This document shows positions 5,401 to 47,214 of a DNA stretch of 64,000 bases, in pieces; position 1 is the first letter of the stretch, and each line of letters opens with the position of its first letter. The notes beneath the pieces are model-generated. The model was not told where the DNA came from, searched no databases, and saw nothing but the letters and a program-made list of their open reading frames with translations. This DNA is from a virus. The stretch covers positions 1 to 64,000 of IMG/VR virus record IMGVR_UViG_3300034630_000009; one strand, written 5' to 3'. The translations under genes were made by a program, and so were the position numbers.

Positions 5401-5413
5401 AAGAACTCCTGAA

Positions 5414-15666: not shown

Positions 15667-15709
15667 AGGAGAACCCAGCGCGGTTAAGGTCGCTGCTACT
15701 GTTCCCCCG

Positions 15710-16560: not shown

Positions 16561-17327
16561 CAGAGTAAGTACGCCTCCTCAAGTCCCAGTAGTAATTGTG
16601 TGGCACTGACCGCTACGCCTACTTCCTGATAATAGCCCGGTGCCACTATGAGGGGGTTCTGTGTCAGGTTGCCAACGCTGCCCACAAAGACAGGCTGGTC
16701 TACCGTCCAACTCCAGCCAGTATCTTGCATCAGCCCACTGGTGGCAAATTGTGGTTTTCCGCCTGCTGCCACTGCGTTCAACGTTAGCCCGATCGCGCCT
16801 TCAGTCTGGGTTATATCAGTCGCATCGGCATAGACTAATTGCCCATTGTGCAGCGCAACTAGCCGATGGAGGGAAAGTGCGATCGCGGCTGGGTATTGTC
16901 CTGGTGTGGGTTGTAGCGCAATGCCCTGAGCGCCACCTGCCACTGCTTGAGCGCGAAAAATACCCGATACTTTTGCCCCCAGCGCTGCCTCTACCCCAAA
17001 GGGGCTAGGTGTACCTCTGTAGAGCGTAAACCAGCCTGATTGCGTGTCTTTCGTCACCGGATCGGTAATCACTGCCCACCCTTTGCTGAGATGCCCCACA
17101 CCGTTGGGTACGGTGGAAGGGTTGGTCAGACGACCTGACAGAGGCTCATCAGACTCATCTATACCAGGATAGAAAAGCCCCCTCGGACGACTATCAGGTT
17201 TCAAGTAAGCCTTGACCGTTACCGTGAGTGTTGCTGGTTGTTTGTTGCCCGTGCGCGGGTCAGTAGCGATCGCACCCGTTGCGACCGAAAATGTCAGCAC
17301 CGCGTTACTGGGAAACGGTGAAGCCAT
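16560..17327 (-). CDS. Head closure-like protein fused to a cement-like domain
   Basis: N-terminal TDPRTGN..VKAYL; C-terminal AIGLT..WSW..PVFVG..GVAVSA domain resembles 1849-2817. Confidence 0.55.
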   Translation of the reverse strand: MASPFPSNAVLTFSVATGAIATDPRTGNKQPATLTVTVKAYLKPDSRPRGLFYPGIDESDEPLSGRLTNPSTVPNGVGHLSKGWAVITDPVTKDTQSGWFTLYRGTPSPFGVEAALGAKVSGIFRAQAVAGGAQGIALQPTPGQYPAAIALSLHRLVALHNGQLVYADATDITQTEGAIGLTLNAVAAGGKPQFATSGLMQDTGWSWTVDQPVFVGSVGNLTQNPLIVAPGYYQEVGVAVSATQLLLGLEEAYLL

Positions 17328-21085: not shown

Positions 21086-21371
21086 TGTCGTCTCCTGCTT
21101 TGTCTAGCCCCATAATTGTCTCTAGCTGCCCTGGTTGATCGTAAGGATAAGAGATCTTCAGCCGCTCAGCTTCAGCGATCGATGCCTCGCATTGAGCAAA
21201 GATTTTTTGGATCTGGGGTGGCAGGTTAGCCTCTGTGTCTGCCTTTACGCAGTCGTTGATGAGGCGATCGCGCACAGCATCTCCATTGTCCGGTTCCTTG
21301 CTAATTTGATAGCGGAACAACGGACTACCCATGATCAGCGCCAGCTTCCGGCTCAGTTCAGCTTGCATCAA
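21075..21371 (-). CDS. Hypothetical protein (candidate immunity protein)
   Basis: ATGA overlap with the portal-fusion stop codon. Confidence 0.6.
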   Translation of the reverse strand: MMQAELSRKLALIMGSPLFRYQISKEPDNGDAVRDRLINDCVKADTEANLPPQIQKIFAQCEASIAEAERLKISYPYDQPGQLETIMGLDKAGDDNAN

Positions 21372-27474: not shown

Positions 27475-28782
27475 TTACCATTCTCCTACCCAGTTGCCGC
27501 TAAGCTGACTCTTAATCAAGGGAGACAGCGCATAACGTGCGCTGTCGATCGCGTGATTGTGTTTATCGACAATGGCTGGCAGAATGTCGCCCGCAGCATT
27601 TGTCTTGTACCGATACAACCTGCATTCTTCAGCAAAATGCGTGCAGCGCTGATGTACTACTATCTTGTCAAAATTCCTGAGAAAAGCAATCCCGTCCTCT
27701 ACCGAGCCTGCCCACTTATCGGCGGCAACCAAGTAGGGTATACCAGGACGATCGCGCTTTTGCTGCGAGACATGGCTAATCGATTCTGGTCGTGAGTTAT
27801 CGGCACGGACTGTGTGTTTTTCAATCTCTGGGAGGTCACGCATCCAGCGATCGGCAGTCTGGTCTAACTCTAGCTGTAACGCCCAGGATTCGTACTCTAC
27901 CCACAAACATTGATCATAAATCCAGAGCTTCACGGCTGCGGTCGGGTCAGCGGCAAAGCCCCAGTCGGCTCCAAAGTAGGGACCATCCCAGTCGCTACCT
28001 GGTACAAATTCATCCAGCCGCCACTTGTCGCCAAAGATTTGGAGCTGCGATTTGATGTTGTAGCCACCCTGCCAGACGTGTTGGTAATAATCAGTGTCGC
28101 GCTGACGGTCAAGTGCCATCTCTGCCAGTGATTCAGCAGGTAGCAGCGGATTCTGGTCGTAGTTCACTGAGACAACGATCGCGCCTTCTGGTACACCTGT
28201 TTCGCCACGAAAGAAATGATCAACAGCATCAGTGGGTTGATCGGGGTTCCAGGTAAACCAGATCTCCGAACCAGGGGTGCGAATGGTAGGGCGGAGGAGA
28301 GTGAGCGATCGGGCGCTCAAGTTCTGCGCTTCTTCGACCCAGGCAAGACCGAATCCTTCCAATGATTTGATGGAATCGGCTGTGTGGTCTTGCATCCCTT
28401 GAAAAATGCAAATGCCGTTGCCGCCCTTGCGCCTGATTTCAGTAGTAAGAATGGTAAACAGGTGCCTCACTCCCATCTCTTGAATTTTCTTCTCCAGTAG
28501 CGCTTTAGCGGAGAATTTGAGCGATTTTTGAATCTCACGAATACAGACCACTCGCAGATCTGGTTCTGCCACCATGCGCTGTACCGCTTTTTCAGCAAAG
28601 TGATGGGACTTACCCGCACTACGCCCCCCGTAAGCTGCCTTGTAGCGTGATGACTCCTTGAAAGGCAACGCCCAGTCTGGAATCTGAAGTTGTAGGTGAA
28701 TAGGCTGCGATCGCGGCTTCACAGGCGGCAACCACTTATTCAGTCGCTTCTCTCTCCGCTCTAGCCGCTCTAAGCCTTTCAT
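27475..28782 (-). CDS. terL: Terminase large subunit (PBSX family)
   Basis: GGRSAGKS Walker A, WVEEA Walker B, TWNP, GADWG, NHAIDSARY. Confidence 0.97.
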   Translation of the reverse strand: MKGLERLERREKRLNKWLPPVKPRSQPIHLQLQIPDWALPFKESSRYKAAYGGRSAGKSHHFAEKAVQRMVAEPDLRVVCIREIQKSLKFSAKALLEKKIQEMGVRHLFTILTTEIRRKGGNGICIFQGMQDHTADSIKSLEGFGLAWVEEAQNLSARSLTLLRPTIRTPGSEIWFTWNPDQPTDAVDHFFRGETGVPEGAIVVSVNYDQNPLLPAESLAEMALDRQRDTDYYQHVWQGGYNIKSQLQIFGDKWRLDEFVPGSDWDGPYFGADWGFAADPTAAVKLWIYDQCLWVEYESWALQLELDQTADRWMRDLPEIEKHTVRADNSRPESISHVSQQKRDRPGIPYLVAADKWAGSVEDGIAFLRNFDKIVVHQRCTHFAEECRLYRYKTNAAGDILPAIVDKHNHAIDSARYALSPLIKSQLSGNWVGEW

Positions 28783-30977: not shown

Positions 30978-32183
30978 ATGCTGACCCGCAAAGAGTTGCA
31001 CGAGCAGGTACGTCGGGATCAGCGCGATCGGCAAACTGCTCCTGATGACCAAAGCCACAAAAGCGCGATCGTGGGCATGGGTAAACGCGACCCGCAGACG
31101 GGACAGCATGAGGTGCTGTTGCCTGATGGCTCGGTTGAGGTGGGGGAGAAAGTCTTCAGCAGCAGCCTGCCAGAAGGGAGTCAGGTGCTAGGGATTCTTC
31201 AAGAGGCTGGTGGGTGGTTGCTGGACGAACGGGATGTCACGGCAAGAATTTCGTCTGCGGCAGAGGAACCGGTTGGGAAGATCAAATATCTCTATTCAAT
31301 CATCAACTCAACCACAAGGAAAACTGAGTATTGGGTAGGAGGCTGGCAAGCGCAGCCTAAATTTTTATTCGTGGTGCAAGATTTTATCCCGCTAACCCCC
31401 TTCCCTAGCTTCAATATTCGCTTATCCAACCGTGCTAAAAGCGCTTATACGGTTGATCTGGGCAAGGTGACCGGAAGCGGGTTGCTCATACCAGGCTTTC
31501 CACCAGGGTCAAACAAAGCGGGTTATTTCGTCACTCTGGATCAAAACGGTTCTGTCGTGTATCAAAGCCGCACGTTAGTAGGCGATCGAGAAAACTTTTT
31601 CTCCATTGGTCTCGTTTCCAATAGTTTTTACTACGCTCCTATCAACGATGCCAGCAGTATCCTGACTGGCAGTTGGACAACGTGCTTTCAAGGTATAGCC
31701 ACAAGCGGTTATGGTGCTGATATTACTAATGTCCGGCAATACCATTTACCTGCCTTTATTAGTCTCAATCCTGCCAGTATCTATCGCGGTGATGCGCCTG
31801 ATGGAACAAGTTTGGTGTATCAAACTTTTGCCATTAATAAAACTGGAAATTGCGGCGTTGGCAGACTCGCGGCAACGCCATACAGCAGCAGCCAACTTTA
31901 TTGGCTTGAAGTCGGTATGCTAGGCGCAGCGCAGAGCTTGACTTTCTTGCCATTACAAACCGGAGCTTTAAGAGCGCAATATCGCATTGACTGCTTTGAT
32001 CGAATTTTCAGTGTTTTTAGCCGCACAGATCTGGATTTGGCTAAACAAAAAACAGTGGCGATCGACTTTTACAAGGGGTTAACAGGTGAAAAAACGAACA
32101 CAAAGAAAACGAAAGTTTATCCAATACCACTGAAACAACGATCGCTCTCCCCGATTATCATTGACGCTTCTTATCATCCTTAA
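30978..32183 (+). CDS. Paralog of tail-module protein 3177-4298
   Basis: GKIKYLYS, GGWQ, DCFD, KVYPIP..QR, SYHP. Confidence 0.75.
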   Translation: MLTRKELHEQVRRDQRDRQTAPDDQSHKSAIVGMGKRDPQTGQHEVLLPDGSVEVGEKVFSSSLPEGSQVLGILQEAGGWLLDERDVTARISSAAEEPVGKIKYLYSIINSTTRKTEYWVGGWQAQPKFLFVVQDFIPLTPFPSFNIRLSNRAKSAYTVDLGKVTGSGLLIPGFPPGSNKAGYFVTLDQNGSVVYQSRTLVGDRENFFSIGLVSNSFYYAPINDASSILTGSWTTCFQGIATSGYGADITNVRQYHLPAFISLNPASIYRGDAPDGTSLVYQTFAINKTGNCGVGRLAATPYSSSQLYWLEVGMLGAAQSLTFLPLQTGALRAQYRIDCFDRIFSVFSRTDLDLAKQKTVAIDFYKGLTGEKTNTKKTKVYPIPLKQRSLSPIIIDASYHP

Positions 32184-32240
32184 TTGTAAGCATACCCCGG
32201 TCTGAAGACGCGGGGTTTCCAAACGTATCAGGTATTTCTG

Positions 32241-32501
32241 ATGACCCGCACCGAACTCACCGCTCAAACCCGTTTCCAACAATCCATGCGCGTTCTCACT
32301 CAAGGTAACAGCTCGTCGCCCTACGGGTTGAGAGCAGTAACGGGCTATCTGGGCAAACGAGATGCTCAGACGGGCGATCGGACTTTCACTGATGCAACAG
32401 GTGTAACCACCCCTGCCCGTGACTTGAGAACTGGCGCTCAACCCTCAGACCATGAGGCGGCAGGGATTCAAGTTGAAGGCGGCAAGAACTATGTGCGCTA
32501 G
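32241..32501 (+). CDS. Small protein resembling the N-terminus of 30978-32183
   Basis: MTRTEL/MLTRKEL and GKRDAQTG/GKRDPQTG. Confidence 0.65.
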   Translation: MTRTELTAQTRFQQSMRVLTQGNSSSPYGLRAVTGYLGKRDAQTGDRTFTDATGVTTPARDLRTGAQPSDHEAAGIQVEGGKNYVR

Positions 32502-32649
32502 AGAGAAGACAGCTATACTGGACTGATACAGAAGTTCTATATTGAGTTCTATGTCTGGGGCGATCGAAGTCACTCTTCCCCTTGTGCGAATGCCACGAGG
32601 GGTTTTTTATGGCTTAATGGAAGCGTCCTGTACCAATGGAGCTAGTACA

Positions 32650-32973
32650 ATGTTTGCAAGACTTAAAGAATTGATTGATGGGATCGTGAGTCGCTTGAAA
32701 GCCGCGATCGCATCCTTAGCAGAGTACCAGGAAGAAAACGTAGCGCTAAAGGCAGAGAACGCTGATCTCAAACAAAGGCTAGCCGATACAGCAGCGCTAC
32801 CTGCTGAGACTGAAGAACGCATTCAAGCCCTGTTGCAAGAGGCGGCAACAGCCAGGGCAGAAGCCGAGACCGCCAAGGCTGATTTAGCAGTGGTGAAGCA
32901 GCAGGATGTGGAAGAAGAGGGGCAAATTCAGGAGTTGATCACCAACCTGGAAGCAGCAACCCCGTCCGCATGA
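32650..32973 (+). CDS. Coiled-coil hypothetical protein
   Basis: GGAG upstream of ATG 32650; heptad pattern. Confidence 0.65.
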   Translation: MFARLKELIDGIVSRLKAAIASLAEYQEENVALKAENADLKQRLADTAALPAETEERIQALLQEAATARAEAETAKADLAVVKQQDVEEEGQIQELITNLEAATPSA

Positions 32974-32999
32974 CGTTACATTAAGCCATGCTCATGTTG

Positions 33000-33030
33000 G
33001 GACGCTCAGGGGGCTGAACGTCCTTTTTTG
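33000..33030 (+). terminator. Rho-independent terminator
   Basis: GGACGCTCAG/CTGAACGTCC stem followed by T7. Confidence 0.75.
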
Positions 33031-33255
33031 TTGAGAACCACAAACCGTATAACTAAATACAATTGTCACAAAAGCATTGCCTACACATGCCAAGCGAGAC
33101 AGACTTTCCTGTCTTGGCACGGAGATTAAGCCACTTACATCTAAGCCACCAATCAGTGCTTTTGTGACAATTGTTTAGAGCTTGATACAAAACAGAAAGG
33201 CAAGATCAAACGTACTGGGCTAGGATATTCTCAGCAAAACAAAAGGCTCCCGCGC

Positions 33256-34143
33256 TTGGCAGTTTGGGAGCCTTTTGAAAACCAATTAGCAATGATGTCA
33301 TTATCTAATATTTTCACGCTACCTGCAACCGAAGTGCAGATCGATCCGCCGCTTCTCGAAACCTTTAGAGAAGAAGTTGCTGCGATCGCGCTCCAATGGA
33401 CAGATAAACGCTTGATTGCCACAATGGGCTACCTGAACAACCTGCTCTACTGCGCCGCCAAAGCTCAAGGCGTTGTAAGTCGCGGGTTTAGCAAGCTTTT
33501 AGAGATTGCCCAGTCCGCGCTTTTCAGGTTGCGAGAACAAGTCACCGTGACGGTGCCCATTACTTATAGCGAACAGTTCCTGTCGCAACACTGGAGCGGG
33601 GGCACCTTCAGCCGCAGCAGTTTGCGCTCAATTAGAGAGCAACTGTCTACAGTCTTTGGGTTGTTCGAGTACGAGAAGTTAGCGTTTTGTGCGCGTCAGG
33701 CAGGCGACCGAAAACAGCGTTCTACTTACGAGGCCTTTGATGTCGCCAAAGCGTTGCTGGTCTATGAGCAGTTGGAGCGGATCTACTGCGATCGCGGGCT
33801 TGAACTGAGCACTTTAGGGCGGCATCAGGGTTGTTTCTGCAAACTACTGTACGAGGCAATTTTCATACGCTCGGCTGGGTTTCGTCGCGGTGATCAGTCC
33901 GCTGGCAGCATCCCACCCACCGCAGAAGAGGCGGCGATTATACGGGCGGAGCGGACCTTAAAGACCAGCATTGATATGCAATCAAGCTACAACGCACACT
34001 GCGAGGCTCTCAAAGAGTATCGGCGTATCGGGATTGATCGCCGCCATCCAGAATTGTTTGAGGCGACTTATCTAAAATGGCAAGAGCTAAAGCATTGGTT
34101 AGCCAATCGACCGGGCTGGGATTTTGCTGAATTGCCGTACTGA
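33256..34143 (+). CDS. Hypothetical protein, possible winged-helix DNA-binding
   Basis: YSEQFLSQ..SRSSLRSIREQL..GLFEY HTH-like segment. Confidence 0.6.
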   Translation: MAVWEPFENQLAMMSLSNIFTLPATEVQIDPPLLETFREEVAAIALQWTDKRLIATMGYLNNLLYCAAKAQGVVSRGFSKLLEIAQSALFRLREQVTVTVPITYSEQFLSQHWSGGTFSRSSLRSIREQLSTVFGLFEYEKLAFCARQAGDRKQRSTYEAFDVAKALLVYEQLERIYCDRGLELSTLGRHQGCFCKLLYEAIFIRSAGFRRGDQSAGSIPPTAEEAAIIRAERTLKTSIDMQSSYNAHCEALKEYRRIGIDRRHPELFEATYLKWQELKHWLANRPGWDFAELPY

Positions 34144-34200
34144 ACGTGCGCTCAGACGATGGGTAGGGCAGAATATGGGTGTACTACTACTCCCTGAAAG

Positions 34201-34425
34201 ATGCGTCAGTCGACTCTCGATGTGATTACTACCGTTTCTGGTGTTGGTGCCTCCGCTTCTGGTGCCTTGGCTGGGTTTGGTGTGGCACCGCACGTTACCA
34301 TCCCGATCGCGGGTGCCCTGGGCAGCGTCTTTTCCTGGTTCACTCAGAAGCCAGCAACTCCTTACCAACCAATACAAGGCAATTACGCACCCTATCAACC
34401 ACGTCAAGGGGGTAGCGATGGCTGA
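34201..34425 (+). CDS. Small membrane protein (holin-like)
   Basis: Two Gly/Ala-rich hydrophobic segments. Confidence 0.45.
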   Translation: MRQSTLDVITTVSGVGASASGALAGFGVAPHVTIPIAGALGSVFSWFTQKPATPYQPIQGNYAPYQPRQGGSDG

Positions 34426-34651
34426 TTTATTACCCACAGACACCGATCGCCTCACGCGCCTTGAACAGCAAGTAGCAGCAATCCTAGCAATGCAACAGAC
34501 CCAGAACGGGCGACTGGATGTCTTGGAAGTCCAGACGGGCATTACGGGACAGGCTGAGGTTGAACAAATTTTCAACGCGATCGCGGGGGCTGCCGAAGTT
34601 GCCAAAGGGAACCTACCGGATGGGTTAATTGATGAGGCACCGGGCAAGTGA
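34418..34651 (+). CDS. Coiled-coil hypothetical protein
   Basis: Coupled to both neighbours. Confidence 0.55.
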   Translation: MADLLPTDTDRLTRLEQQVAAILAMQQTQNGRLDVLEVQTGITGQAEVEQIFNAIAGAAEVAKGNLPDGLIDEAPGK

Positions 34652-34884
34652 AGCTGAACTTGAGCGATTGGCTGAAAACTGAGACGGTGTTCCACGCGGT
34701 AGCGATCGCGGTGATTCTTCACGCTTTGGTTTATAAGCAGGGTGTTGGCAGTAACGATTTAGCGGCGGCAGCAGCGATCGCGGCTTTGGGCAGGGTGACA
34801 CCAACCGAGAAAGTAGATGAAAGGTTGGATATACCCCTGGATGGCAGCAAGAAAGAGCCGGATAGCGAGGATAGCGATGCTTAA
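34648..34884 (+). CDS. Small membrane protein (holin-like)
   Basis: Hydrophobic helices and a charged C-terminal tail. Confidence 0.45.
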   Translation: MKLNLSDWLKTETVFHAVAIAVILHALVYKQGVGSNDLAAAAAIAALGRVTPTEKVDERLDIPLDGSKKEPDSEDSDA

Positions 34885-35065
34885 CCTTCCCCATGCTGAA
34901 AACCGAGCCCCATTTGATTATTGCGAAATTGCCTTGGTGGATCTGATGGTTCAGATGTTTAAAGGCGTGCCAGTGTCAGAACTCAAGTCCATTTCTTTGC
35001 AGCGAGCCAGAAGAGTCTATATGGAAACGAAGCCAACACCTGCGATCGAGTCTAAGCAATCCTGA
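34877..35065 (+). CDS. Hypothetical protein
   Basis: Coupled ORF with GAGG upstream. Confidence 0.45.
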   Translation: MLNLPHAENRAPFDYCEIALVDLMVQMFKGVPVSELKSISLQRARRVYMETKPTPAIESKQS

Positions 35066-35217
35066 AATTGCCATCCGACTTGGTTTATTAGACGAGCGAG
35101 AAAACCCCCTCCTCTTGAGGCGGGGATGAAAGCGAGTCCGATGTTAGAAATCGGACGGAGACGGCTTTGCGGTGGATGCAGGCACAAGGTACGGAGAGGT
35201 AGAAGGATGGGCGATCG

Positions 35218-35817
35218 ATGCTGTGGAAACGAAAACAGAAACCACCGTCAATCCCTAAGTTTGGCGCGATCGCTAAGCCTGTTCTGCCTGTGGTGTATGA
35301 AGCCTACGGCTGCATTGAAACTCTTACTCCTCAACTGGTGCATTGGTTTACCATTGGCAGGCTTTCAAGCGCGACTGGCTATTCGAGACAGGTATCGCCT
35401 GGGAAACTACTATCACAAAAAATATTGTCAACGGATGGCGATCGTGAAGAAGATCGGTTGCTCTGGCGATCGCTCCTCCAAGGATACCCCACCCACTATT
35501 TAAGAATTTCCTATCAATTAAGTAGTCAACCTCCAGCGCCCGCCAAAGAAATTTTGCATGTGTGGCTTAACCTCAGTATCAGGGGCTATGACAAAGACTC
35601 GATCGCGCGATCGGTGGGTGAGTTTTTGACGTTTGTGGCACTCGATCAAAAACTGCCTGGGTTGCTCATCAGCACCAAGATTTACACAGCAGAGAGTTGG
35701 TTGATCTTTGTCTTTAGCCGGGTCCGTAGTTTCTACGTTGATGCTGGTATTGTCCAAGAGCGAGTGCCGCTTGACAATGTGCGCGGGTATGGCTTGCGTG
35801 GGAGGGAAGAACCTTGA
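35218..35817 (+). CDS. Hypothetical protein
   Basis: 199-aa ORF overlapping the pilin start. Confidence 0.55.
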   Translation: MLWKRKQKPPSIPKFGAIAKPVLPVVYEAYGCIETLTPQLVHWFTIGRLSSATGYSRQVSPGKLLSQKILSTDGDREEDRLLWRSLLQGYPTHYLRISYQLSSQPPAPAKEILHVWLNLSIRGYDKDSIARSVGEFLTFVALDQKLPGLLISTKIYTAESWLIFVFSRVRSFYVDAGIVQERVPLDNVRGYGLRGREEP

Positions 35818-36254
35818 GCGATCGCCGTCAGGGTTTCACGCTGCCAGAGCTGCTGCTTGTTCTCTTTCTCATTGGACTGTTAGCGGCGATCGCTATCCCT
35901 ACCTACCTCGCCCAAGCTCAAAAAGCGCGTGACGTGCAAATTCAGACAGATTTGCGATCGGTGGCGATCGACCTGCAAGCCTATGCCGCTCACTATGGCT
36001 ACCCGCCCGATGCACCACCAGGTGCTGAGCCTGCACCTGAAATCAGTTTTCCTGTAGAGCCTGGTCGTGAAGTAGATTACGATCGCGCCTCTGCCAAAGA
36101 TCCCATCCCCTGCTACAACGGGCAGCGCTGGGTGAAAATTGTGAGCTATCCCAATAGTGGACGGACAGATGATTATCGCAAGCCAGGGGCGATCGGTGAG
36201 TGGACGCACACTGGCAAGGATTGGGCACTTACTTTGTGGGTGGGAAAATGTTAA
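35814..36254 (+). CDS. Prepilin / pseudopilin-like protein
   Basis: RRQG|FTLPELLLVLFLIGLLAAIAIP...YGYP. Confidence 0.88.
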   Translation: MSDRRQGFTLPELLLVLFLIGLLAAIAIPTYLAQAQKARDVQIQTDLRSVAIDLQAYAAHYGYPPDAPPGAEPAPEISFPVEPGREVDYDRASAKDPIPCYNGQRWVKIVSYPNSGRTDDYRKPGAIGEWTHTGKDWALTLWVGKC

Positions 36255-36345
36255 TCGCGCCAAAATAGTAATACAGGGTGACTACGGTGCTTGTCCCATT
36301 CTCAACGCCTACTGGCAAACGCCAAATACTTCGACGGAGACCGTA

Positions 36346-36600
36346 ATGCTTTCTAAGCCTGAGTCAATCGCCCACCAAATTCTGCTGCAATACCCGATCG
36401 ACACAGACCGCGACCGGCTCAATGCTCTGATTGTGATGGCTGTAAAGAAGCGCGATCGGGAAGTCAATAGCTTACTGCAACAACTTTTAGGCGAGTTGCA
36501 AAGTGAGTCCGGGAAAGCTAAGCGACAACTGGAAGGAGCGATCGCGCTGCTGACCAGGACTAGAGCCGCGATCGAAGAAACGCTGCATCCGAGAGTGTAG
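36346..36600 (+). CDS. Hypothetical protein
   Basis: GGAG upstream of ATG 36346. Confidence 0.5.
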   Translation: MLSKPESIAHQILLQYPIDTDRDRLNALIVMAVKKRDREVNSLLQQLLGELQSESGKAKRQLEGAIALLTRTRAAIEETLHPRV

Positions 36601-36606
36601 GTCCGT

Positions 36607-37000
36607 TCAAAGCCACAAAACAAGGATGAAAATCAAAGCACCCAGCCCGCCACCAAACACATGGTTGCTGGACAGCGATGCACCCAACGCCACAAAGATA
36701 GCAGCGACAAGCAGCATTTTCAGGGAGCAGGGCAAACGTCCCCAATTGTGAGCAAGGCGCTGGGGCAGGTTGGGATAATGTTTTTGCTGGCGAGGGCGCT
36801 TCCAGCCTGAAAGCAACCCATGAATCAGCCAGTCGTGCGCGGCAGGCGATAAGACCAGAACATCCCACCAATAGGTCTCGTGCCCCAGGTTGCGGTAATC
36901 GAGATGGTGCATGGCGTAATGATGTTTGCGCCCTACTTTTGGGGTGTTTGTCGCGCCATGCTGGAGAAGTGATGTAAGTGCGGTAGTTGGTTTTACTCAA
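36607..37000 (-). pseudogene. Frameshifted HNH-like protein with C-terminal TM helices
   Basis: NYRTYITSPAW in one frame and HHLDYRNLGHE..DVLVL...H in another; frame changes near 36940. Confidence 0.55.
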
Positions 37001-37009
37001 CTGTCTCTC

Positions 37010-38947
37010 CTACCTAAGGTCTAAACCATTCTTCTGTACTAAGGCAATAACTTCATTGCTTGGAGTGGCAAAACTGACATTTGAAAAACCGCCGTTCTCG
37101 TTAAGCCATGCAGATTTATTCACACCGATCATTTCACCTTGCTGATTAAATAATGGACCACCGGAGTTGCCATACCGCAAAGCGATCTTCGCTTTGATGT
37201 CAGCACCCCTCAAACCAAGAATGTACCCTTGGTTTATTTTTGCCTTGTTGGCGGGATTGCCAATTGAGCAAACTTTCTCGTTAGGCTGAACAGCCTTAGC
37301 CGCCAAACTTACAACAGCTAGCGACTGAGCGGTAACTACTTTTACAATTGCAAGATCTCGCAATTGATTAAAAGCAACTACAGTGCCCTGGAAATTCTGC
37401 CCTGAAGCCAAACGGATATAGATTTTATTTTTCCTGTCCGCGATTGCTTCTTTCACTACGTGGTGATTAGTGACGATTAAGCCATCACTGGAAATCACGC
37501 TACCTGAACCAATCTCATAACCTGCATAAATTTGAGCAAATGCGGGGTTGTTCGTTATACATACTGACTGATAGCCGCTTTCATGCGAGACTGACGCGAC
37601 TTTCTGCTTTTCCACTTTAGAACACACTTGGATTGTATAGTCCAGGATCGATGGATACTTGCCTTGCGGGGTGCTGCTGTTTTTGTTGCTAGCGCTGCCT
37701 GAGTACCAAAAAGAAGCCGTCGATCGACAAGCTTCAAAGCTACTCTCTCCGGCTTTACGCGCTCGTTTAAACTCCTGTGTGAGTTTGCAGGTAGCAATCT
37801 TTTCCTGATGATCCGGGCTGCCAAGAAACTGCTGAGCCGTAAGCTGTTGCCCTAAACACTCCTGTGACCAGGAAGGCACATTGGCAGGCATAATCTGATA
37901 TTTACCCAAGGCACCCGAATCAGCATTAGTAGTCGCATAATCACCGCCCGATTCTTGATTGGCGATCGCCTTGATGACTGGATTGCTACTACCTGCCGAT
38001 CGTGCCGTCGCACCGACAACCGCCATCTCCAAATAGCCGCGCTGGGGTGGAATATATTTGCCGCCCACTTTTTGACCCCAGTGCAAATGCGGTCCGGTTG
38101 AATTGCCCGTGTTGCCAGAAAGTGCGAAGACTGAGCCTGTTTTATGGCTACCAGGATCGCACTGGGATAAATGTGCAGCGAGAAAGCTATAAAGCTGCCC
38201 AGAGGGTTTGATCACGGCATAGGTGCCTGCTGCGTTACCCTCAGATTCAGAGTGGCATTCTACCGTGCCTGACATCGGCATTTTGATGGCAGTACCCACA
38301 GGCAAAGCAACATCGGCACCTTGATGATTAGTAGAACCGATGCCGCCTGGACTGGAACGCAAGCCGAAGCCGCTGGTTACAGCGTAGCTGCCAATTTTTT
38401 GCCCTTGTTGCACGACTGAAGTGTCGATTATTTCATCGCCTTCCTGCAAGGGCAACTCATCTAGCTTGCTGTCGTGCATCGGCACCAATCCAGAGACAGG
38501 AAGGATGGCGTGCAGAATGATTTTCGCCCAATCTGTAGGGGACGCGCCTTTAACCAATTGAGCCGCCATCAAAATGGCAAGGCACACCCAAGGGGCAATG
38601 AGGTGAAACCCTAGCGTGTTGATGTAGAGCGATTCTTGTACGTCGCCTGAAACATCGTTGAGTTTGCGTTTGATTCCTTTCTCTACGCGGTTAAGCTTTA
38701 ACTCAAAGAAATAATCCCAAGCGTCTTTCGGATCTGGCTTGTCTTTGGGCTGACTGCTCGACCGCTTAAGACTTGTTTCGATGCCATCCAAACGATCGTT
38801 GATTTTGGATAACGCTGCTGCTAGGTCATTGCTAACAGCCCCACCTGACTGGTACTCAGCAACATCGCTATCACTAGCAAATTTGCCTTTATGTCTGCCG
38901 CTGGTATGCCTATAGCGATTAACGTCTGGATCAAACTCAATAGCCAT
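37010..38947 (-). CDS. Membrane-anchored M23 peptidase + lysozyme-like + trypsin-like protease fusion
   Basis: HQGAD / GNTGNSTGPHLH (M23); QESGG..ALGKYQIMP; TNHHVV, DLAIVKV, GNSGGPL. Confidence 0.9.
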   Translation of the reverse strand: MAIEFDPDVNRYRHTSGRHKGKFASDSDVAEYQSGGAVSNDLAAALSKINDRLDGIETSLKRSSSQPKDKPDPKDAWDYFFELKLNRVEKGIKRKLNDVSGDVQESLYINTLGFHLIAPWVCLAILMAAQLVKGASPTDWAKIILHAILPVSGLVPMHDSKLDELPLQEGDEIIDTSVVQQGQKIGSYAVTSGFGLRSSPGGIGSTNHQGADVALPVGTAIKMPMSGTVECHSESEGNAAGTYAVIKPSGQLYSFLAAHLSQCDPGSHKTGSVFALSGNTGNSTGPHLHWGQKVGGKYIPPQRGYLEMAVVGATARSAGSSNPVIKAIANQESGGDYATTNADSGALGKYQIMPANVPSWSQECLGQQLTAQQFLGSPDHQEKIATCKLTQEFKRARKAGESSFEACRSTASFWYSGSASNKNSSTPQGKYPSILDYTIQVCSKVEKQKVASVSHESGYQSVCITNNPAFAQIYAGYEIGSGSVISSDGLIVTNHHVVKEAIADRKNKIYIRLASGQNFQGTVVAFNQLRDLAIVKVVTAQSLAVVSLAAKAVQPNEKVCSIGNPANKAKINQGYILGLRGADIKAKIALRYGNSGGPLFNQQGEMIGVNKSAWLNENGGFSNVSFATPSNEVIALVQKNGLDLR

Positions 38948-38950
38948 TGA

Positions 38951-39127
38951 TTACTCCTTTGGCGTTGGAGGCTGCATCTGATTTGCTTCCTTACCAATCA
39001 ATGGCACTTGCCAACCTGTAGCTTTCTGAAGCTCTTGATTAGCAGGTGCAATCAGCCCAGGTGTAAGGATGTTGGCAGCTACCCACAGCATGAAAAGGTA
39101 ATACAACCCGATCGCAGTTCTTGCCAT
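38951..39127 (-). CDS. 58-aa single-TM protein (absent from ORF track)
   Basis: Manual translation MARTAIGLYYLFMLWVAANILTPG...PKE*; start abuts upstream stop. Confidence 0.6.
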   Translation of the reverse strand: MARTAIGLYYLFMLWVAANILTPGLIAPANQELQKATGWQVPLIGKEANQMQPPTPKE

Positions 39128-39318
39128 CACTCCACCCCGTTCGGTGGCACCGGATTGCGGTTTTCAGCAGGGCGCGTTTGACCAGTCAAGATAAACGTGG
39201 CTACGTTCCACAACACTTTGACCGTGCCTGCCACATCCACCGACAGTTTCACCGTGCCCGATCCCATGAGGTTAAAAAGCAGCAACACAATCACCAACGT
39301 CCCGATCGTCTTACGCAT
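39127..39318 (-). CDS. Small membrane protein
   Basis: Hydrophobic N-terminus; coupled to neighbours. Confidence 0.6.
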   Translation of the reverse strand: MRKTIGTLVIVLLLFNLMGSGTVKLSVDVAGTVKVLWNVATFILTGQTRPAENRNPVPPNGVE

Positions 39319-40603
39319 GAGTCAATCCTCCAACTTTGTCTAATGCACCTTCCCAAACCTGTTTCACCCGTTGATATTTCGGGTCGTTGTTGCGTAGCTC
39401 TCTCAACCCACAAAGAGCCGCAATTTGTCGCAGCGGGCTTTTAATTTCTTTGGCGTTGAACTGTTCAGCCAGATGCTCAATCTCTGCCATCACAGACTCA
39501 CTGAACGTCTGCTGCGACCAAACCTCTAAAGGATCTGTTTCATCCACAGGCAGCTTAAGTTCAATGTTGCTCACGCTCAAATTAGGAATCAGTCGGATAC
39601 TGATCTCCTGGTTGATGCGCACCACACCCAACCGTCTTGCACCTAAACCTTGGATACCTTTAACCCGATCGATGATGCTGTTCACATCCTCCACTCCTAA
39701 CCGCCGCAACGGGTCAGCTTTCTGTGCTGAGGTGTTAAGCACGATCGTATTGAACGAGTCTTGCGCTGCCAATGACAGTCCTGTGTCGGTGACAGTCAGG
39801 TTTTGGATGCCGCAAATCACCTTGATCCGCTGCTTCAACCCTCGATTAATGACATTCTTAAACGCACTGATGAGAGCATTGGCTTCATCCTTGCCACGAC
39901 TCTTAGCCATGTCAGTTACAGCGATCAACTCGTCGATCGCCAATAGTCTTGGCTGCCAATTGCGGGCATGTGTTGGATCTTGGCTTGCCTCTGCCCGCCG
40001 ATCGACCTCTGCTGATTCGGCAATGATCGCATCCCGAATTTGCTCATACGTCGAACGGATGTAGCGATCGCGTGGCAGGTGAAACCACCAATTCGGTTCA
40101 CTGCCTTCATGGGCACTCCCATAATCGAGGTCACAGATGGTGACGTGCAGGTTGGGCTGGTGCTGAAAGTGGTGGGCTAGCTGCCACAACAAGAAAGTGG
40201 TCTTACCGTCACCAGACACACCGCACACCAACTGCGATCGACGACTAAAATCACCCAGCCACTCACCCTTAATCGATTCAGTCTCCAACCACGCTTGCAT
40301 GTTGGTACTGAGTTCCTTTTGCAGGTGCTTCACCTGAATCAGTTTGCGGGCTTCGCCAATGTCCGATCGCTGCAACCCATACACCTGGAATAGATGCTGC
40401 CAGCCTTCGGCAAACGTGTTAACTCCCAGTGCCAGCGCCTGAATGTAATCGCTATTATTCAGTTGCTCTTTGCGGTTTACGCCCACAGAGCCACCCAGCA
40501 GGGTCAGCCCTGCATAAAACCCGATCGGGCTACGAATGGTAGACATCACCAGTGCAGCACTACTTGCTAGCAGCAGGCTTGTTAGCGCTTTTGGTTGGTT
40601 CAT
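39311..40603 (-). CDS. Membrane-anchored FtsK/HerA-like P-loop ATPase
   Basis: N-terminal hydrophobic segments, GVSGDGKT, LLAIDE, RG.K..I.VI.GIQ. Confidence 0.8.
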   Translation of the reverse strand: MNQPKALTSLLLASSAALVMSTIRSPIGFYAGLTLLGGSVGVNRKEQLNNSDYIQALALGVNTFAEGWQHLFQVYGLQRSDIGEARKLIQVKHLQKELSTNMQAWLETESIKGEWLGDFSRRSQLVCGVSGDGKTTFLLWQLAHHFQHQPNLHVTICDLDYGSAHEGSEPNWWFHLPRDRYIRSTYEQIRDAIIAESAEVDRRAEASQDPTHARNWQPRLLAIDELIAVTDMAKSRGKDEANALISAFKNVINRGLKQRIKVICGIQNLTVTDTGLSLAAQDSFNTIVLNTSAQKADPLRRLGVEDVNSIIDRVKGIQGLGARRLGVVRINQEISIRLIPNLSVSNIELKLPVDETDPLEVWSQQTFSESVMAEIEHLAEQFNAKEIKSPLRQIAALCGLRELRNNDPKYQRVKQVWEGALDKVGGLTHA

Positions 40604-41261
40604 CAGCTTTTACTGGATTGAGAAAATTGGTACCGAGGATCAGAGAATACTGAGCGATCGCTTCATTTGCCGCGTCAAGATACTCTTTCGGCGCGATCGC
40701 TTTGTCGCTAACAGCTTCTCCTTTCTTGACCGCACGTAAGGCATGAAGGCAGGCTAATGAATCAATGAAGCGGTCTTTCAACACGGCGAACTGCTCAACA
40801 TCGCCCGATAGCGACCCATAACGCTTGGAGGCTTTGGCATAATCGCGGTACTGCTCAGCGTAAGTTTGCACTAACCAATACTCGGCATTGCTGCTCTTCT
40901 GCGCCTGTCGCTGAAACTGGTCGGCTCTGATCTTAATGAGCAACCCGAAATCACGATCACCTGTCGCAACGGCTTTATCCAGTGTGCTAATCAAGTCATC
41001 CATTGATGGTGAGTCAGTGGCAGGGGCTAGAGCTTGCCCATCCTTCTGCACCTGCCTCTGCACAGCAGCATCACGGACTGGTGTAGCTGGTGGGTTCTGG
41101 TGGGGTCGGGTAATCAGAGGCAACGCGATCGCGCCCACTACCACACCAAAGAACAACAGCTTACCTGCAAAGGTCGGCTTCCCTGGCGATGGGTTTGTCG
41201 AAGTTGGTGGGGTTGGTGTATGCCCATTTTGAGCGTTAAATTCTGGTGTGTCTGAAAGCAT
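40560..41261 (-). CDS. Single-pass membrane protein
   Basis: LLFFGVVVGAIALPLI followed by a helical domain. Confidence 0.7.
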   Translation of the reverse strand: MLSDTPEFNAQNGHTPTPPTSTNPSPGKPTFAGKLLFFGVVVGAIALPLITRPHQNPPATPVRDAAVQRQVQKDGQALAPATDSPSMDDLISTLDKAVATGDRDFGLLIKIRADQFQRQAQKSSNAEYWLVQTYAEQYRDYAKASKRYGSLSGDVEQFAVLKDRFIDSLACLHALRAVKKGEAVSDKAIAPKEYLDAANEAIAQYSLILGTNFLNPVKADEPTKSANKPAASK

Positions 41262-41350
41262 GGTATTTCCCCACTAAAACAGTTTTCGTCCCACCAAATC
41301 AACGCAAGAATCGGACTTTGAGGTCTGTCGCTGGTGGGTGGATGGGCTTT

Positions 41351-41773
41351 CTACGGATCGACTTTTTGATCCTCTCGCAGCGAAAGCAGGTTGCTTAAGC
41401 TGTCCAATTCAGCAGCAGTCAGGGTGCCGCGCTGCATTTGACGAGTGATAAATTTAGCCACTACCGCATCGTCATCGCGCTCTGGTATCGCTAGTGCAGT
41501 GGCTATGACTGCTGCGACAACAGACAAACCAGCAAACGGCGCAATGTGCGTCATCACCACACCCAGGAAGCGCTCACGCCCCTGCACGGTGGTGGCAGGA
41601 TAGTTCTCTAAATAGTGGTTGGTGGCAACGCCAGTAGCGAGAAAAGCGGCAAAACCACTAGCGATCGCGCTGCTCAGTGTCTTCAGGGTGAGGCGCTGTA
41701 AAACTTTTGAGTAAGGGTTGGGCATGGCTGATAGAGAGGGTATAGAGAACGCCGAAAAGGAAGGCGAGAGCAA
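41351..41773 (-). CDS. Two-TM membrane protein
   Basis: Two hydrophobic helices. Confidence 0.65.
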   Translation of the reverse strand: MLSPSFSAFSIPSLSAMPNPYSKVLQRLTLKTLSSAIASGFAAFLATGVATNHYLENYPATTVQGRERFLGVVMTHIAPFAGLSVVAAVIATALAIPERDDDAVVAKFITRQMQRGTLTAAELDSLSNLLSLREDQKVDP

Positions 41774-42313
41774 TCAATCCTGAGACTTTCCCAGGCTTTG
41801 TAACGCTGTTAAACCTTCGGTGAGGCTAACAGTCTCAGCATTTGTGGCAGTGTGCAACCTGTTAGTTTCCATCTGGTAGAGACGCGCTTCTAGCTCCAAC
41901 TTCTGACGCTTGGCTGCGATCGCAGCAGCGGCTTGCTTGGTCTGCTGCAATTTCTGTTCGCGCTGTTGAATGTCAACTGCCATTGAGGTTTCAAGCTGAT
42001 CAGCCGCATTGATGAACTGAGCGGCTAGAGCCAACGGATCTTCGTAGGTTTGCACCTCAGAGACTCGTAAACCTTCCAGGGTGTACGTTTGTGGCAACTG
42101 AGGAGCGCCTAAAACAATCTGATGGTTACCAACCTCTACGGTTACAGGGGAAGCCTCAACGACTGGCTTCAGGTCAAACTCATGCATGAGCATGTCAAGG
42201 TCAACAGGGTTAAGACCATCCGTGATGTCCAAATTCAACTCTTGACAACGACGGTGAACGGTCGTTTTAGAAAGCTTGTTGTCCCTGCAAAATTTGGTTA
42301 AAGATGTGTTCAT
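41774..42313 (-). CDS. HTH + coiled-coil protein
   Basis: SLTKFCRDNKLSKTTVHRRC HTH; long C-terminal coiled coil. Confidence 0.7.
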   Translation of the reverse strand: MNTSLTKFCRDNKLSKTTVHRRCQELNLDITDGLNPVDLDMLMHEFDLKPVVEASPVTVEVGNHQIVLGAPQLPQTYTLEGLRVSEVQTYEDPLALAAQFINAADQLETSMAVDIQQREQKLQQTKQAAAAIAAKRQKLELEARLYQMETNRLHTATNAETVSLTEGLTALQSLGKSQD

Positions 42314-42338
42314 TGGTCAAAAACCTCAAAGCCTTATG

Positions 42339-42423
42339 GGAACTGACTTGGAACAGGTCGGAACGGGTTGGAACACGATTCTTTCGTCAACACCTAGTTC
42401 CAATCGTGTTCCAAGGGCGTTCC
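42339..42423. promoter_or_regulatory. Helically phased inverted GGAAC/GTTCC array
   Basis: GGAAC at 42339, 42350, 42360, 42370; GTTCC at 42397, 42408, 42419. Confidence 0.7.
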
Positions 42424-42522
42424 ACGAATGAAATCACGGTAACACATTTATCCCCTTTGTGTTCCCTTAGTAGGGGTGAAATTAGGTAGATTAGTAGAAA
42501 TGTGTAGCAAAGGCGTAAGATT

Positions 42523-42783
42523 ATGACTGAAACATCCCCTACTAGCACCATTGACGATATGCCACCAACCGACGCGCAAAAGATGGAGCGGATCGACTTT
42601 GCCGTACCCAAACCGTTGCTTGATGAAGCGATCGCAATGGCAAAGGAAGATGGGTTTAAGCCCGCTGAATTTTTCCGGCAGGTATGGCTAGACGGGTTGT
42701 TCGCTTACGCAGAGAAAAGCAACAAAGTCTTAGTGAATCGCAAGCTTAGGCGACAAGCCACAGAGACGGATGAATCTAAATAG
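42523..42783 (+). CDS. Ribbon-helix-helix-like regulator
   Basis: ERIDFAVPKPLLDE..AKEDG..PAEFFR. Confidence 0.65.
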   Translation: MTETSPTSTIDDMPPTDAQKMERIDFAVPKPLLDEAIAMAKEDGFKPAEFFRQVWLDGLFAYAEKSNKVLVNRKLRRQATETDESK

Positions 42784-45473: not shown

Positions 45474-47057
45474 TCAAGCCTCCACTGCTAAGGCGATCGC
45501 ACTTTCTACCAGATCCCAATCACTAGCAGGGTAAAGATTGATGGGTCGCACTTCACCGTTGATGATGCCGCCTCGCTGTTGAGGGCTAGAGCCGTGACGG
45601 TTGCGGTACATGCGGGCGGCTTGAATGCCTGCTTGTTGGATCTGGAAGGGAGAGAGCAATCTGCCATTGAGCTTGGCGTAGTCAGAGACAGTGAGCGGGT
45701 CAGGTTCGATGATGGGTCTGGTGGATGTGATGTCCTTCGTCAGGTCTTCCAGGTGCATCAATTGCACAGCGCGGGACAATTGACCCGTGAGGATATTTTT
45801 GAGCGTGGAGCCTTCGGGTAGTGCCTCAATCTCGGTCGCGGTGCGCGTCGCTTGTGCGATGCGATCGAGCACCAGCAGCTTTGGATCAAGCGCGGCGAGT
45901 GGGGGCGTTGGGGTTGAAGGTGGGGTTGCGACCGCTGGGGTCACGTCCACCGTAGTGGTCGCTGGCTCCAAAAAGGTTTCTGTCTCAGCCGGGGCGATCA
46001 GAGCTTCACTCTCGCTGGCAGCGATCGTCTTCTTGCCCAGTTGGTTGAGCGCTTGGTGGAGGGTGAGATTTTTCAGTGCGCCTTCAAGCTGGTCACGTCC
46101 TTCCCAAAGTTGCATGGCACGTTGGGCTTTACGCTCTTGGATGCCGCGTTGTTTGAGAAACGGTAGCCATTCGCCGTACTTACATACCTCTCGTTTGAGC
46201 AAGAGCTTTTCACCCAGTTCGAGGTAGAGCAGTAGGGCAGACTTGCCCGATCGCACGGCGACAGTTTCCGCTTCGACAGCACGCAGATAGAGTTCGCTGA
46301 TCTGATCGTCCAGGGAGAGGGCAGCGAGTTGAGGCAACAGACCCACTGTGGCGGTTAACTTTTGGGCTGGGTCAGATTTGGTGGTCATCGACGCTGCCAG
46401 GTAGGCAAGGGCGCGGGGTGTCCAGACAGTAAGGGTGTGAGCCTGATGCGAAAGACCGAGTTTGGTGCGGAGCGTTTTGGGTACTTTGCGCGTCTCCACG
46501 CCTAGCGTTTGCAGTGTTTCAGTGTGACGACGCTGGCAACCATACACAATGTGCAGCTCGACTTCGAGCCAGTCAGCGACGCCCTGGACGCTAGTTACTA
46601 AGTTGCCTTGCCATTTGACGAAGGGATGCGCGGGTTTGACCTGGAGGAGCGATCGCAGGAGAGCCAGGTCGGTTTGGAGGGGGGTGAGAGTAGGGGATGA
46701 GGGAGGAAGGGGTTTTAGTTGGGGGGCTTTGCCGTTAAGCTTCTGCTTGGCTTCGGAGAAGGCTTTGACCAACTTGAGCTTGCATTGCACTACTTGAGGT
46801 GTGTTGCGGCTCAGGGTCATCACGAAAAACGATTGATCTTCGTTGAGGAGGGCGTAACGCTCAGGACGACCGCCCTTACTACCTTCAAGGGGTTTCTCCG
46901 TTTCAAACGGAACAACCCCAAATGCTTGCTCTATCTGTACTTGGTGTTTCTGAATTGTTTCAAGGAAGTTGCTGTGATCAACGCCTAAACTTTCGGCAAT
47001 CAAACGGGAATCAACGACTAGGATGCTATCGTGTTCTGCGACTGATAAATTAGACAT
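45474..47057 (-). CDS. Rha-family antirepressor with DUF3102-like and further domains
   Basis: VVDSRLIAESLG..GGRPE.YALLNEDQ..MTLSRNT..KLKLVKAF; LGEKL..YGEWLPFL. Confidence 0.85.
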   Translation of the reverse strand: MSNLSVAEHDSILVVDSRLIAESLGVDHSNFLETIQKHQVQIEQAFGVVPFETEKPLEGSKGGRPERYALLNEDQSFFVMTLSRNTPQVVQCKLKLVKAFSEAKQKLNGKAPQLKPLPPSSPTLTPLQTDLALLRSLLQVKPAHPFVKWQGNLVTSVQGVADWLEVELHIVYGCQRRHTETLQTLGVETRKVPKTLRTKLGLSHQAHTLTVWTPRALAYLAASMTTKSDPAQKLTATVGLLPQLAALSLDDQISELYLRAVEAETVAVRSGKSALLLYLELGEKLLLKREVCKYGEWLPFLKQRGIQERKAQRAMQLWEGRDQLEGALKNLTLHQALNQLGKKTIAASESEALIAPAETETFLEPATTTVDVTPAVATPPSTPTPPLAALDPKLLVLDRIAQATRTATEIEALPEGSTLKNILTGQLSRAVQLMHLEDLTKDITSTRPIIEPDPLTVSDYAKLNGRLLSPFQIQQAGIQAARMYRNRHGSSPQQRGGIINGEVRPINLYPASDWDLVESAIALAVEA

Positions 47058-47214
47058 GGTTCTCCTTAGTGATATTGGGTGGACTAGGGCGATCGCAGCT
47101 TTGACCGGGTGCGATCGCTTCAAACTTTGAGCGGCACACTAATCAAATCCGTCATAGGTTGTTGTGACGGATTTGAGGTTATCTTTAGAAGAAGGACATA
47201 CAGGGCGATCGTTG

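Follow-up and report, generated by a model that had tools for sequence, protein, structure and literature searches.

The 64,000-nucleotide stretch studied here (the window; G000:C89:63406-127405) carries a tailed prophage of a cyanobacterium, and the subject of this report is one conserved cassette within it. The cassette comprises seven minus-strand genes (41773-36607), which encode, in order, a protein with two transmembrane (TM) segments, a bitopic protein, an FtsK/TcpA-like ATPase predicted to be membrane-anchored, two proteins with one TM segment each, a three-domain peptidoglycan hydrolase, and an HNH-like TM protein. These genes keep their order on phages, prophages, and plasmids. We tentatively propose, with a confidence somewhat short of even, that the cassette is an envelope-crossing DNA translocation apparatus which dispenses with VirB4 and with a relaxase and which, by analogy, would operate like the Streptomyces TraB/Spd systems. 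No prior description of the cassette was found in the literature covered, which did not include most subscription journals, supplements, and the genome paper of phage PaV-LD.

The ATPase, 430 residues long, contains a Walker A motif (GVSGDGKT at residue 128) and a Walker B motif (LLAIDE at residue 220). Taken as a single sequence it found 0 Pfam families at E <= 0.1, no family in NCBIfam or PADLOC, one weak match in PHROGs (E 0.0034), and nothing significant in the PDB by phmmer. An exhaustive phmmer search over 1.84 billion representative proteins returned 100 relatives at E <= 1e-3 and 16 at E <= 1e-30, and residues G133, K134, and E225 are invariant across the 82 relatives that were aligned. 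The profile of this 82-sequence alignment matched HerA (8xau, E 2.8e-9), EccC (4nh0, E 5.3e-9), EssC/EccC fragments, TcpA (6o1w, E 3.3e-4), and FtsK (2iuu, E 8.6e-4) in the PDB; the top matches were all FtsK/HerA-class translocases. Among the same relatives (E <= 0.01), 6 match FtsK_SpoIIIE (PF01580), 6 match DUF87/HerA, and 15 match the generic AAA_22, and a tblastn search with the family member at locus L025 reached FtsK/SpoIIIE-domain genes on 138 Enterococcus plasmids (E ~4e-7). Membership of this class had been set beforehand as a test of an earlier note on this DNA (the original prediction), which had proposed a DNA transfer or intra-filament spread module, and the PDB profile matches bear it out.

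From its N-terminus, the AlphaFold model of the ATPase (mean predicted local distance difference test score, pLDDT, 90.3) runs through a helical hairpin (residues 3-22 and 26-46) and a stalk into a RecA-like core (103-352) and ends in a C-terminal domain of four helices; it has one ATPase domain and no FHA domain. The hairpin also appears in the hydropathy of the ATPase homologues. Foldseek placed TcpA first (E 3.8e-6), and in a structure comparison the nearest structure was TcpA of pCW3, with a score of 19.9 and a root-mean-square deviation of 3.1 Å over 227 residues at 11% identity; the further scores were 17.7 for FtsK, 15.9 for EccC, 14.4 for VirB4, 14.2 for HerA, 12.9 for STIV2 B204, and 12.6 for TrwB. 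Based on the profiles and the model, we assign the ATPase to the FtsK/HerA superfamily, where it forms a family of its own that has no Pfam model. A transposition ATPase identity was considered and rejected, as TnsC reached only E 0.0086 in the PDB profile search. One homologue from Tildeniella nuda (P0102) is publicly named "TniB family NTP-binding protein," which is probably a misannotation because the fold and profile evidence indicates FtsK/TcpA.

In the window, the conserved genes are preceded by g179, and together they make up eight co-oriented minus-strand open reading frames (ORFs) that run from 42313 to 36607 with junction gaps of 0, +89, -44, -8, -4, +3, and +97 nt (Table 1). The 0-nt junction is that of g179 with g140, and the 3' end of g233 runs 44 nt into the start of the ATPase gene. 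Hydropathy, by which all TM segments were predicted, gives two to g140, one each to g233, g63, and g59, one to the hydrolase, and two to g101. The original prediction had described a co-oriented, tightly coupled operon with four small membrane proteins, a TM-anchored P-loop ATPase, and a TM-anchored peptidoglycan hydrolase. This description holds: the eight ORFs are there with the junctions just given, all four small proteins have predicted TM segments, the ATPase combines its Walker motifs with N-terminal helices in the model, and the hydrolase joins a TM segment at ~residue 107 to M23 and SLT Pfam matches with intact motifs.

We compared the cassette across 13 non-redundant loci (duplicates removed), all of which were located via the ATPase. 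They came from tblastn, from whole-genome searches, and from named genome contigs and IMG/VR, the last two by means of a 6-sequence ATPase alignment. The tblastn homologues included ORF127L of phage PaV-LD, annotated as FtsK/SpoIIIE, and both plasmids of Oscillatoria acuminata PCC 6304. Whole-genome searches were positive at E < 1e-100 in 3/400 other cyanobacterial genomes, and in 3/89 other genomes of the window's order. The named contigs belong to Tildeniella, Pantanalinema, Leptolyngbya, and one metagenome-assembled genome; the loci of the first three are prophage-like regions. The window, PaV-LD, and two contigs from IMG/VR are phage or prophage. A listing of cluster members added Thermoleptolyngbya as a host. 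The named hosts (Planktothrix, Oscillatoria, Tildeniella, Pantanalinema, Leptolyngbya, and Thermoleptolyngbya) are, we presume, all filamentous.

Gene order was identical in 13/13 loci, two of them on plasmids, which agrees with the co-occurrence of the genes that had likewise been set in advance as a test. A protein with 2-3 TM segments and then a bitopic protein (173-381 aa) lie directly upstream of the ATPase in every one of the 13, and in all 12 loci with downstream sequence the ATPase is followed by 1-2 small proteins with one TM segment and then by the TM-anchored hydrolase gene or genes. This order is kept at ATPase identities of only 23-30% and across element types. Among the accessory proteins, those in equivalent positions show homology inside each of two subgroups, and matches across classes are at noise level. 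The block common to the window and the Tildeniella element (L030) extends from g140 into g101, and the flanks differ. Because similarity is bounded by these two genes, the cassette is a discrete unit, to which neither g179 nor the 86-aa gene belongs.

On the two O. acuminata plasmids, pOSCIL6304.01 and pOSCIL6304.02, the neighbors of the cassette include ParM, ParA, and a DUF5906 primase, and neither phage structural genes nor VirB4 are annotated in the parts viewed (all but the first ~10.6 kb of.01). One of them has a MOBP relaxase 30 kb from the cassette. The other is typed as non-mobilizable, and no relaxase is annotated in the parts of it viewed (the record without its first ~10.6 kb). Side observations at other loci include an RRXRR-HNH protein and an IS605 OrfB/TnpB-like gene (5734-7008 and 16050-17249) next to the Tildeniella cassette, and, likewise beside the cassette, a Cas3-like helicase-nuclease at 14172-16556 of the Leptolyngbya FACHB-8 locus (L033).

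The hydrolase has a predicted cytoplasmic N-terminus, a TM segment at ~107-130, an M23 endopeptidase domain at 207-300 (Pfam E 8e-12), an SLT/lysozyme-like domain at 315-396 (E 1.3e-4, 22.0 bits against a cut-off of 21.3), and an HtrA/trypsin-like domain at 480-609 (Trypsin_2, E 4.4e-25). NCBIfam and PHROGs also support the domains, and PADLOC defence-system matches cover no more than the protease domain. The catalytic motifs are complete (HQGAD and HLH; QES; H493, D531, and S595). A tblastn search of the hydrolase against plasmids was dominated by trypsin-domain matches.

Across the loci, an endopeptidase and a glycosidase recur behind a TM anchor, as M23 with SLT, as M23 with GH108, or as two adjacent genes. 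An M23 domain is present in 10/12 loci, nine of them above the Pfam cut-off and L003 by blastp to the window's M23 region (E 2e-20). The glycosidase partner is SLT in the window, L026, and L027 and GH108 in PaV-LD (ORF122) and both O. acuminata plasmids (L003 by annotation only). The SLT match of L030 is sub-threshold; L025, L031, and L033 have no glycosidase match; and L035 and L043 have sub-threshold lysozyme-like matches and no M23 domain. The additional HtrA-like protease is found in the window, L030, L031, and L043. PaV-LD ORF123 (Pfam M23, E 1.5e-32) is the counterpart of the M23 part of the window's hydrolase both in sequence (39% identity over 124 aa) and in position, the ATPase homologue ORF127L lying upstream of it.

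Related TM-anchored ATPases of the FtsK/TcpA type form a sister family, which was found via the N-terminal region of P0045 and by fold and which occurs in phages of filamentous cyanobacteria and on 18 large plasmids of Nostoc and Halotia (including L044). Its phage members include Aphanizomenon phage CL131 gp108 (L037) and a protein of Leptolyngbya phage Lbo402-yong5 (L036), and BFVD matches include an uncharacterized Nodularia phage protein. Fifteen of the plasmids match at ~48-50% identity over ~80% of gp108; the other 3 match only its C-terminal tail. Loci of this family have multi-TM genes upstream of the ATPase and no hydrolase downstream. Nucleases accompany several of the ATPases considered here: P0045 has a C-terminal HNH domain, a weak PD-(D/E)XK match covers the C-terminal tail of the distant cousin CL131 gp108, NinG and PD-(D/E)XK genes lie directly downstream of the Lbo402-yong5 ATPase, and in the window and L030 an HNH-like TM gene closes the cassette. 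These links hint, if weakly, at DNA as the substrate. One phage record names a distant cousin ATPase "DNA translocase coupling protein," so the fold similarity had already been noticed by others.

Profile searches of the 158.5-kb contig C89, which contains the window, found no VirB4, VirD4, or relaxase, as the original prediction had said of the first and last of these. In the whole genome (6.9 Mb, GC 51%), the VirB4 model PF03135 had no match and PF12846 had sub-threshold matches on other contigs only. The relaxase model PF03432 is absent from C89, and its sole match in the genome (E 6e-38) is on contig C34, together with a VirD4-like gene (PF02534, E 7.4e-16; ~9970-36274); these genes may belong to a separate mobilizable or conjugative element. 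No VirB4-sized ORF (~800 aa) was seen by eye in the ORF lists of the 13 loci within the cassette, taken as the co-oriented genes between the 2-TM gene and the hydrolase inclusive. The cassette does share two features with type IV secretion systems (T4SSs), namely a coupling ATPase with N-terminal TM helices and a membrane-tethered peptidoglycan hydrolase. It is not a T4SS, since VirB4 was looked for without success, as was a polytopic channel protein. Nor is it a type VII secretion system (T7SS), because it has a single ATPase domain, the core at 103-352, in contrast to the tandem ATPase domains of EssC/EccC.

The nearest fold to the ATPase, TcpA (PDB 6o1w/6o1x), belongs to the Tcp system of Clostridium perfringens pCW3, yet the two proteins share only the 11% identity given above. 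The Tcp system also has a VirB4-like TcpF, a VirB6-like TcpH, and a relaxase. None of these three has a counterpart gene in the cassette, VirB4 and relaxase are absent from the contig as well, and the host here is a diderm cyanobacterium.

The closest likeness in layout is to the Streptomyces TraB/Spd system of pSVH1, in which one FtsK-like pump and small membrane proteins move double-stranded DNA between and within hyphae (PMC4447253). Like that system, the cassette has one translocase of the FtsK kind, several small membrane proteins whose genes are translationally coupled, a divergent and here putative regulator gene, and a multicellular host (mycelial there, filamentous here), with no relaxase gene on C89. 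The presence of SpdB2 homologues on actinophages (PMC4447253) parallels the sharing of the cassette between phages and plasmids. The accessible part of the same source describes pSVH1 proteins that bind peptidoglycan and mentions no wall hydrolase, whereas here a three-domain hydrolase is a fixed part. The likeness drawn here is one of gene layout, and the phylum differs.

PrgK, of the Enterococcus pCF10 T4SS, has a TM anchor and acts in a VirB4-containing system. Like the hydrolase of the cassette, it has three domains outside the cell, M23/LytM, then SLT, then a third catalytic one, as far as the accessible text of its description goes (bioRxiv 10.1101/2024.02.15.580431). Its gene lies in a DNA-transfer operon, that of our hydrolase in a putative one; its third domain is CHAP instead of HtrA/trypsin-like, and its LytM domain is degenerate (same source), whereas the M23 motifs here are intact. 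By description only, the cassette also resembles the "transjugation" of Thermus thermophilus, in which a single mobile-element ATPase, TdtA, exports donor DNA independently of any T4SS and uptake by the recipient relies on competence machinery (PMC5365140, as available in part).

We favor DNA translocation because the nearest solved relatives of the motor are either DNA pumps or proteins that couple DNA to the channel in conjugation, because the small membrane partners are obligate and their genes translationally coupled, because the membrane-held hydrolase pairs an endopeptidase with a glycosidase as PrgK does, and because weak nuclease ties recur and plasmids without other transfer genes carry the cassette. 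From these observations, we infer a DNA substrate, a single complex, a direction of transport, and a septal location. In the proposed mechanism, g140, g233, the ATPase, g63, g59, and the hydrolase, possibly with g101, would form one envelope-spanning apparatus of filamentous-cyanobacterial mobile elements. A ring of the membrane-anchored ATPase would pump the element's double-stranded DNA over the cytoplasmic membrane without a relaxase, while the four small membrane proteins would form or gate a channel and keep the complex together. The tethered M23 and lysozyme-type hydrolase would open the peptidoglycan locally, at a septum or in the side wall, without lysing the cell, and the DNA would be exported to a neighboring cell or a competent recipient. 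In this element, a divergent, repressor-controlled promoter would drive the operon.

Several results weigh against DNA translocation, and some of them favor lysis. No polytopic VirB6- or SpdB2-like channel protein was found in the 13 loci, where proteins in conserved positions have at most 3 TM segments predicted by hydropathy. TraB reads 8-bp clt repeats with its C-terminal domain, whereas the C-terminal domain of our ATPase, modelled alone (pLDDT 83.5), had no recognizable DNA-reading fold and no structure match above noise, FtsK-gamma and the TraB winged helix-turn-helix (HTH) included, and no clt-like repeat array was found inside the cassette. The associations with nucleases are weak, at Pfam E values of 1.5e-4 to 5.8e-4 that fall short of the cut-offs, and HNH genes are widespread in phages. 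For PaV-LD, a phage known to be lytic, DNA export is less obvious. Its ORF123 (M23 plus TM) and ORF124 have been published as endolysin and holin: in Escherichia coli they arrested growth, damaged membranes, and led to enzyme leakage, they also inhibited Synechocystis, and the effects of both required their TM domains (PMC9096620). Searches of contig C89 for Phage_lysozyme, Amidase_2, and Amidase_3 found no match, nor did a scan of 10 tail-side and neighboring prophage ORFs find a lysis match; thus, the hydrolase may be the prophage's only muralytic enzyme.

The cassette could accordingly be a lysis or egress module, in which the proteins with one TM segment are holins or pinholins and the TM-anchored M23/SLT/GH108 enzymes are signal-anchored endolysins. 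The ATPase and the upstream membrane proteins would then time, energize, or localize wall breakdown, somewhat like FtsEX with the LytM factor EnvC, and on plasmids controlled lysis would release DNA or cell contents. A muralytic enzyme does lie beside small membrane proteins in a phage genome, as in holin-endolysin pairs; all catalytic motifs of the window's hydrolase are intact; and the cassette shares its strand with the terminase and structural block, upstream of which it lies. A lysis role is therefore plausible, at least for the distal half. As an account of the whole cassette, we consider it unlikely. The full set of genes is not confined to phages, since it also occurs on two plasmids that, in the parts viewed, have none of the structural genes of a phage, and we know of no phage lysis system with an FtsK/TcpA-like pump. 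The ATPase is the most conserved gene, present in 13/13 loci (although the loci were found through it), plus-strand genes at 30978-36600 stand between the cassette and the late structural operon, and overexpression toxicity is expected for any membrane-anchored wall hydrolase, conjugative ones included. The available text of PMC9096620 treats ORF123 and ORF124 alone and is silent on the wider cassette, as ORF122 (the adjacent GH108 gene), ORF125, ORF126, and the FtsK-like ORF127 are absent from it, and sharing with plasmids is not discussed there. If the cassette serves lysis after all, it would represent lysis coupled to an ATPase, a new type of system, and the "holin-endolysin" pair of PaV-LD would be read differently.

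Two further accounts leave DNA unmoved or divide the cassette. It may serve protein secretion through a single-domain EssC/EccC-like ATPase, or septal peptidoglycan remodelling such as filament fragmentation or nanopore widening. An HtrA-like protease would suit protein processing or the removal of septal proteins in the four loci that have it, the small and bitopic membrane partners EssA and EssB of T7SSb are loosely resembled by proteins of the cassette, and the C-terminal domain of the ATPase matched no DNA-recognition fold. EssC/EccC, however, have several ATPase domains, and EssC also has N-terminal FHA domains; the ATPase model has one ATPase domain and no FHA. Moreover, no WXG100-like small substrate gene was seen by eye in the conserved block, and the nuclease fusions and neighbors suggest DNA, so we regard this account as quite improbable. 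Very improbable, in our view, is that two unrelated neighbors are involved, a membrane ATPase module (for example, for segregation or maintenance beside ParM) and an ordinary holin-endolysin pair in the element backbone. L002, L003, and L025 do have an actin-like ALP/ParM gene just upstream, and L030 has a weakly matching one; the cousin ATPases of CL131 and Lbo402-yong5 have upstream TM genes without TM or hydrolase genes downstream. Yet the genes from g233 through the hydrolase overlap or stand 3 nt apart (-44, -8, -4, and +3 nt), and the block shared with L030 is sharp-ended and spans both halves, both of which make a chance pairing less likely; the gene order is also kept across element types at the low ATPase identities given above.

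Table 1. Positions of the cassette, its control region, and prophage landmarks in the window
Feature	Position	Strand	Description
Tape measure	9346-13545	-	Structural block
Major capsid	17619-18626	-	Structural block
Large terminase (TerL)	27475-28782	-	Structural block
g101	36607-36912	-	Distal half of HNH-like motif and two C-terminal TM helices
Hydrolase, 645 aa	37010-38947	-	TM-anchored; M23, SLT, and HtrA/trypsin-like
g59	38951-39130	-	One predicted TM; 4-nt overlap with g63
g63	39127-39318	-	One predicted TM; 8-nt overlap with ATPase stop
ATPase, 430 aa	39311-40603	-	Predicted membrane-anchored FtsK/TcpA-like P-loop ATPase
g233	40560-41261	-	Bitopic; N-terminal tail, one TM (~residue 28), Pro-rich linker, helical domain
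g140	41351-41773	-	Two predicted TM (~residues 32 and 68); first gene of conserved cassette
g179	41774-42313	-	First gene of the operon here; possible N-terminal HTH and coiled coil
Divergent control region	42314-42522	.	Operator-like GGAAC/GTTCC array
Divergent 86-aa gene	42523-42783	+	ORF; ribbon-helix-helix (RHH)-like by eye; putative small DNA-binding regulator
Rha-like regulator	45474-47123		Prophage landmark

The cassette sits inside a prophage-like element, because the window has a minus-strand structural block in its left half and a Rha-like regulator, and the contig has an integrase. This single integrase of C89 lies 23 kb outside the window, and a comparison of both prophage sides for exact direct repeats of at least 18 nt, as att candidates, found none. 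The host is a cyanobacterium: the repeat list of the window contains numerous GCGATCGC palindromes, which we take to be the cyanobacterial HIP1 repeat, and among the relatives of the ATPase the closest comes from a Tildeniella nuda record. An ORF of 1884 aa (21368-27022, minus strand) separates the large terminase from the head genes. Two prepilin-like genes were observed, one just past the cassette (35814-36254, plus strand; Pfam N_methyl, E 1.4e-6) and one among the tail genes (4870-5436, minus strand; PHROG "pilin," E 1.5e-10). Their products could modify host type IV pili or competence; they stand as a mere observation beside the likeness to TdtA.

The small proteins g179, g140, g233, g63, g59, and g101 and the 86-aa protein yielded nothing usable in Pfam, PHROGs, NCBIfam, or PADLOC. 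Against PDB sequences, g179 and the 86-aa protein had designed-repeat or chance matches only. Thus, two labels of the original prediction, "HTH-coiled coil" for g179 and "RHH" for the divergent regulator, found no backing in either kind of search. A search of the ESM Atlas gave no fold lead for g233 (scores <=0.80, template-modelling scores <=0.34). Within the family, g140, g63, and g59 are 81%, 74%, and 71% identical to their L030 counterparts, g63 is 34% identical to a protein of L033, g140 also has homologues in L031, and g233 is homologous to proteins of L030, L031, L033, and L032. In place of g179, the Tildeniella locus has the weakly matching actin-like (ALP/ParM-like) gene and an 80-aa gene.

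The description of g101 as an HNH-TM protein stands for the TM helices; for HNH there is no Pfam match, and the second half of the HNH-like motif is alone in frame. A piece that looks N-terminal lies in another frame, in the overlapping ORF 36560-37000 (three-frame reading). The Tildeniella homologue (phmmer E 1.6e-13), which likewise has no Pfam match, shows the full CxxC...HH...H..H pattern together with TM helices, whereas the window copy is without the CxxC part. Because of this half motif, the displaced piece, and the full pattern in Tildeniella, g101 may be a decayed or frameshifted copy, or may reflect a sequencing error.

The divergent control region contains 4 GGAAC and 4 GTTCC at ~10-11 bp spacing, which is about one helical turn, and a perfect 13-nt inverted repeat (42368-42380 and 42402-42414). 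Three of the four TTGGAACA sites in the window are located there. Judged from its letters, the array looks like an operator.

If the cassette moves DNA, this would bear on plasmid mobility: about 88% of 424 cyanobacterial plasmids have been classed as likely immobile under a VirB4/VirD4/relaxase model (PMC8600333, as available in part), and a VirB4-less FtsK-like pump would be a mobility route for some of these "immobile" plasmids. A more specific proposal, which we consider somewhat unlikely, is that the cassette is a movement module, by which the genomes of phages as well as plasmids would be pumped directly between the cells of a filament through a septal hole, without virions or a T4SS. 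It would then be a bacterial counterpart of the movement proteins of plant viruses, TraB-style double-stranded DNA conjugation would have arisen a second time, independently, in a multicellular prokaryote, and the sister ATPase family of Nostocales phages and Nostoc plasmids would serve the same purpose. A 2026 preprint reports "potential cell-to-cell spread" from imaging only, in the portion available (10.64898/2026.02.14.705889); the cassette, if this proposal is right, would provide a concrete mechanism for the spread of phage and plasmid DNA inside filaments.

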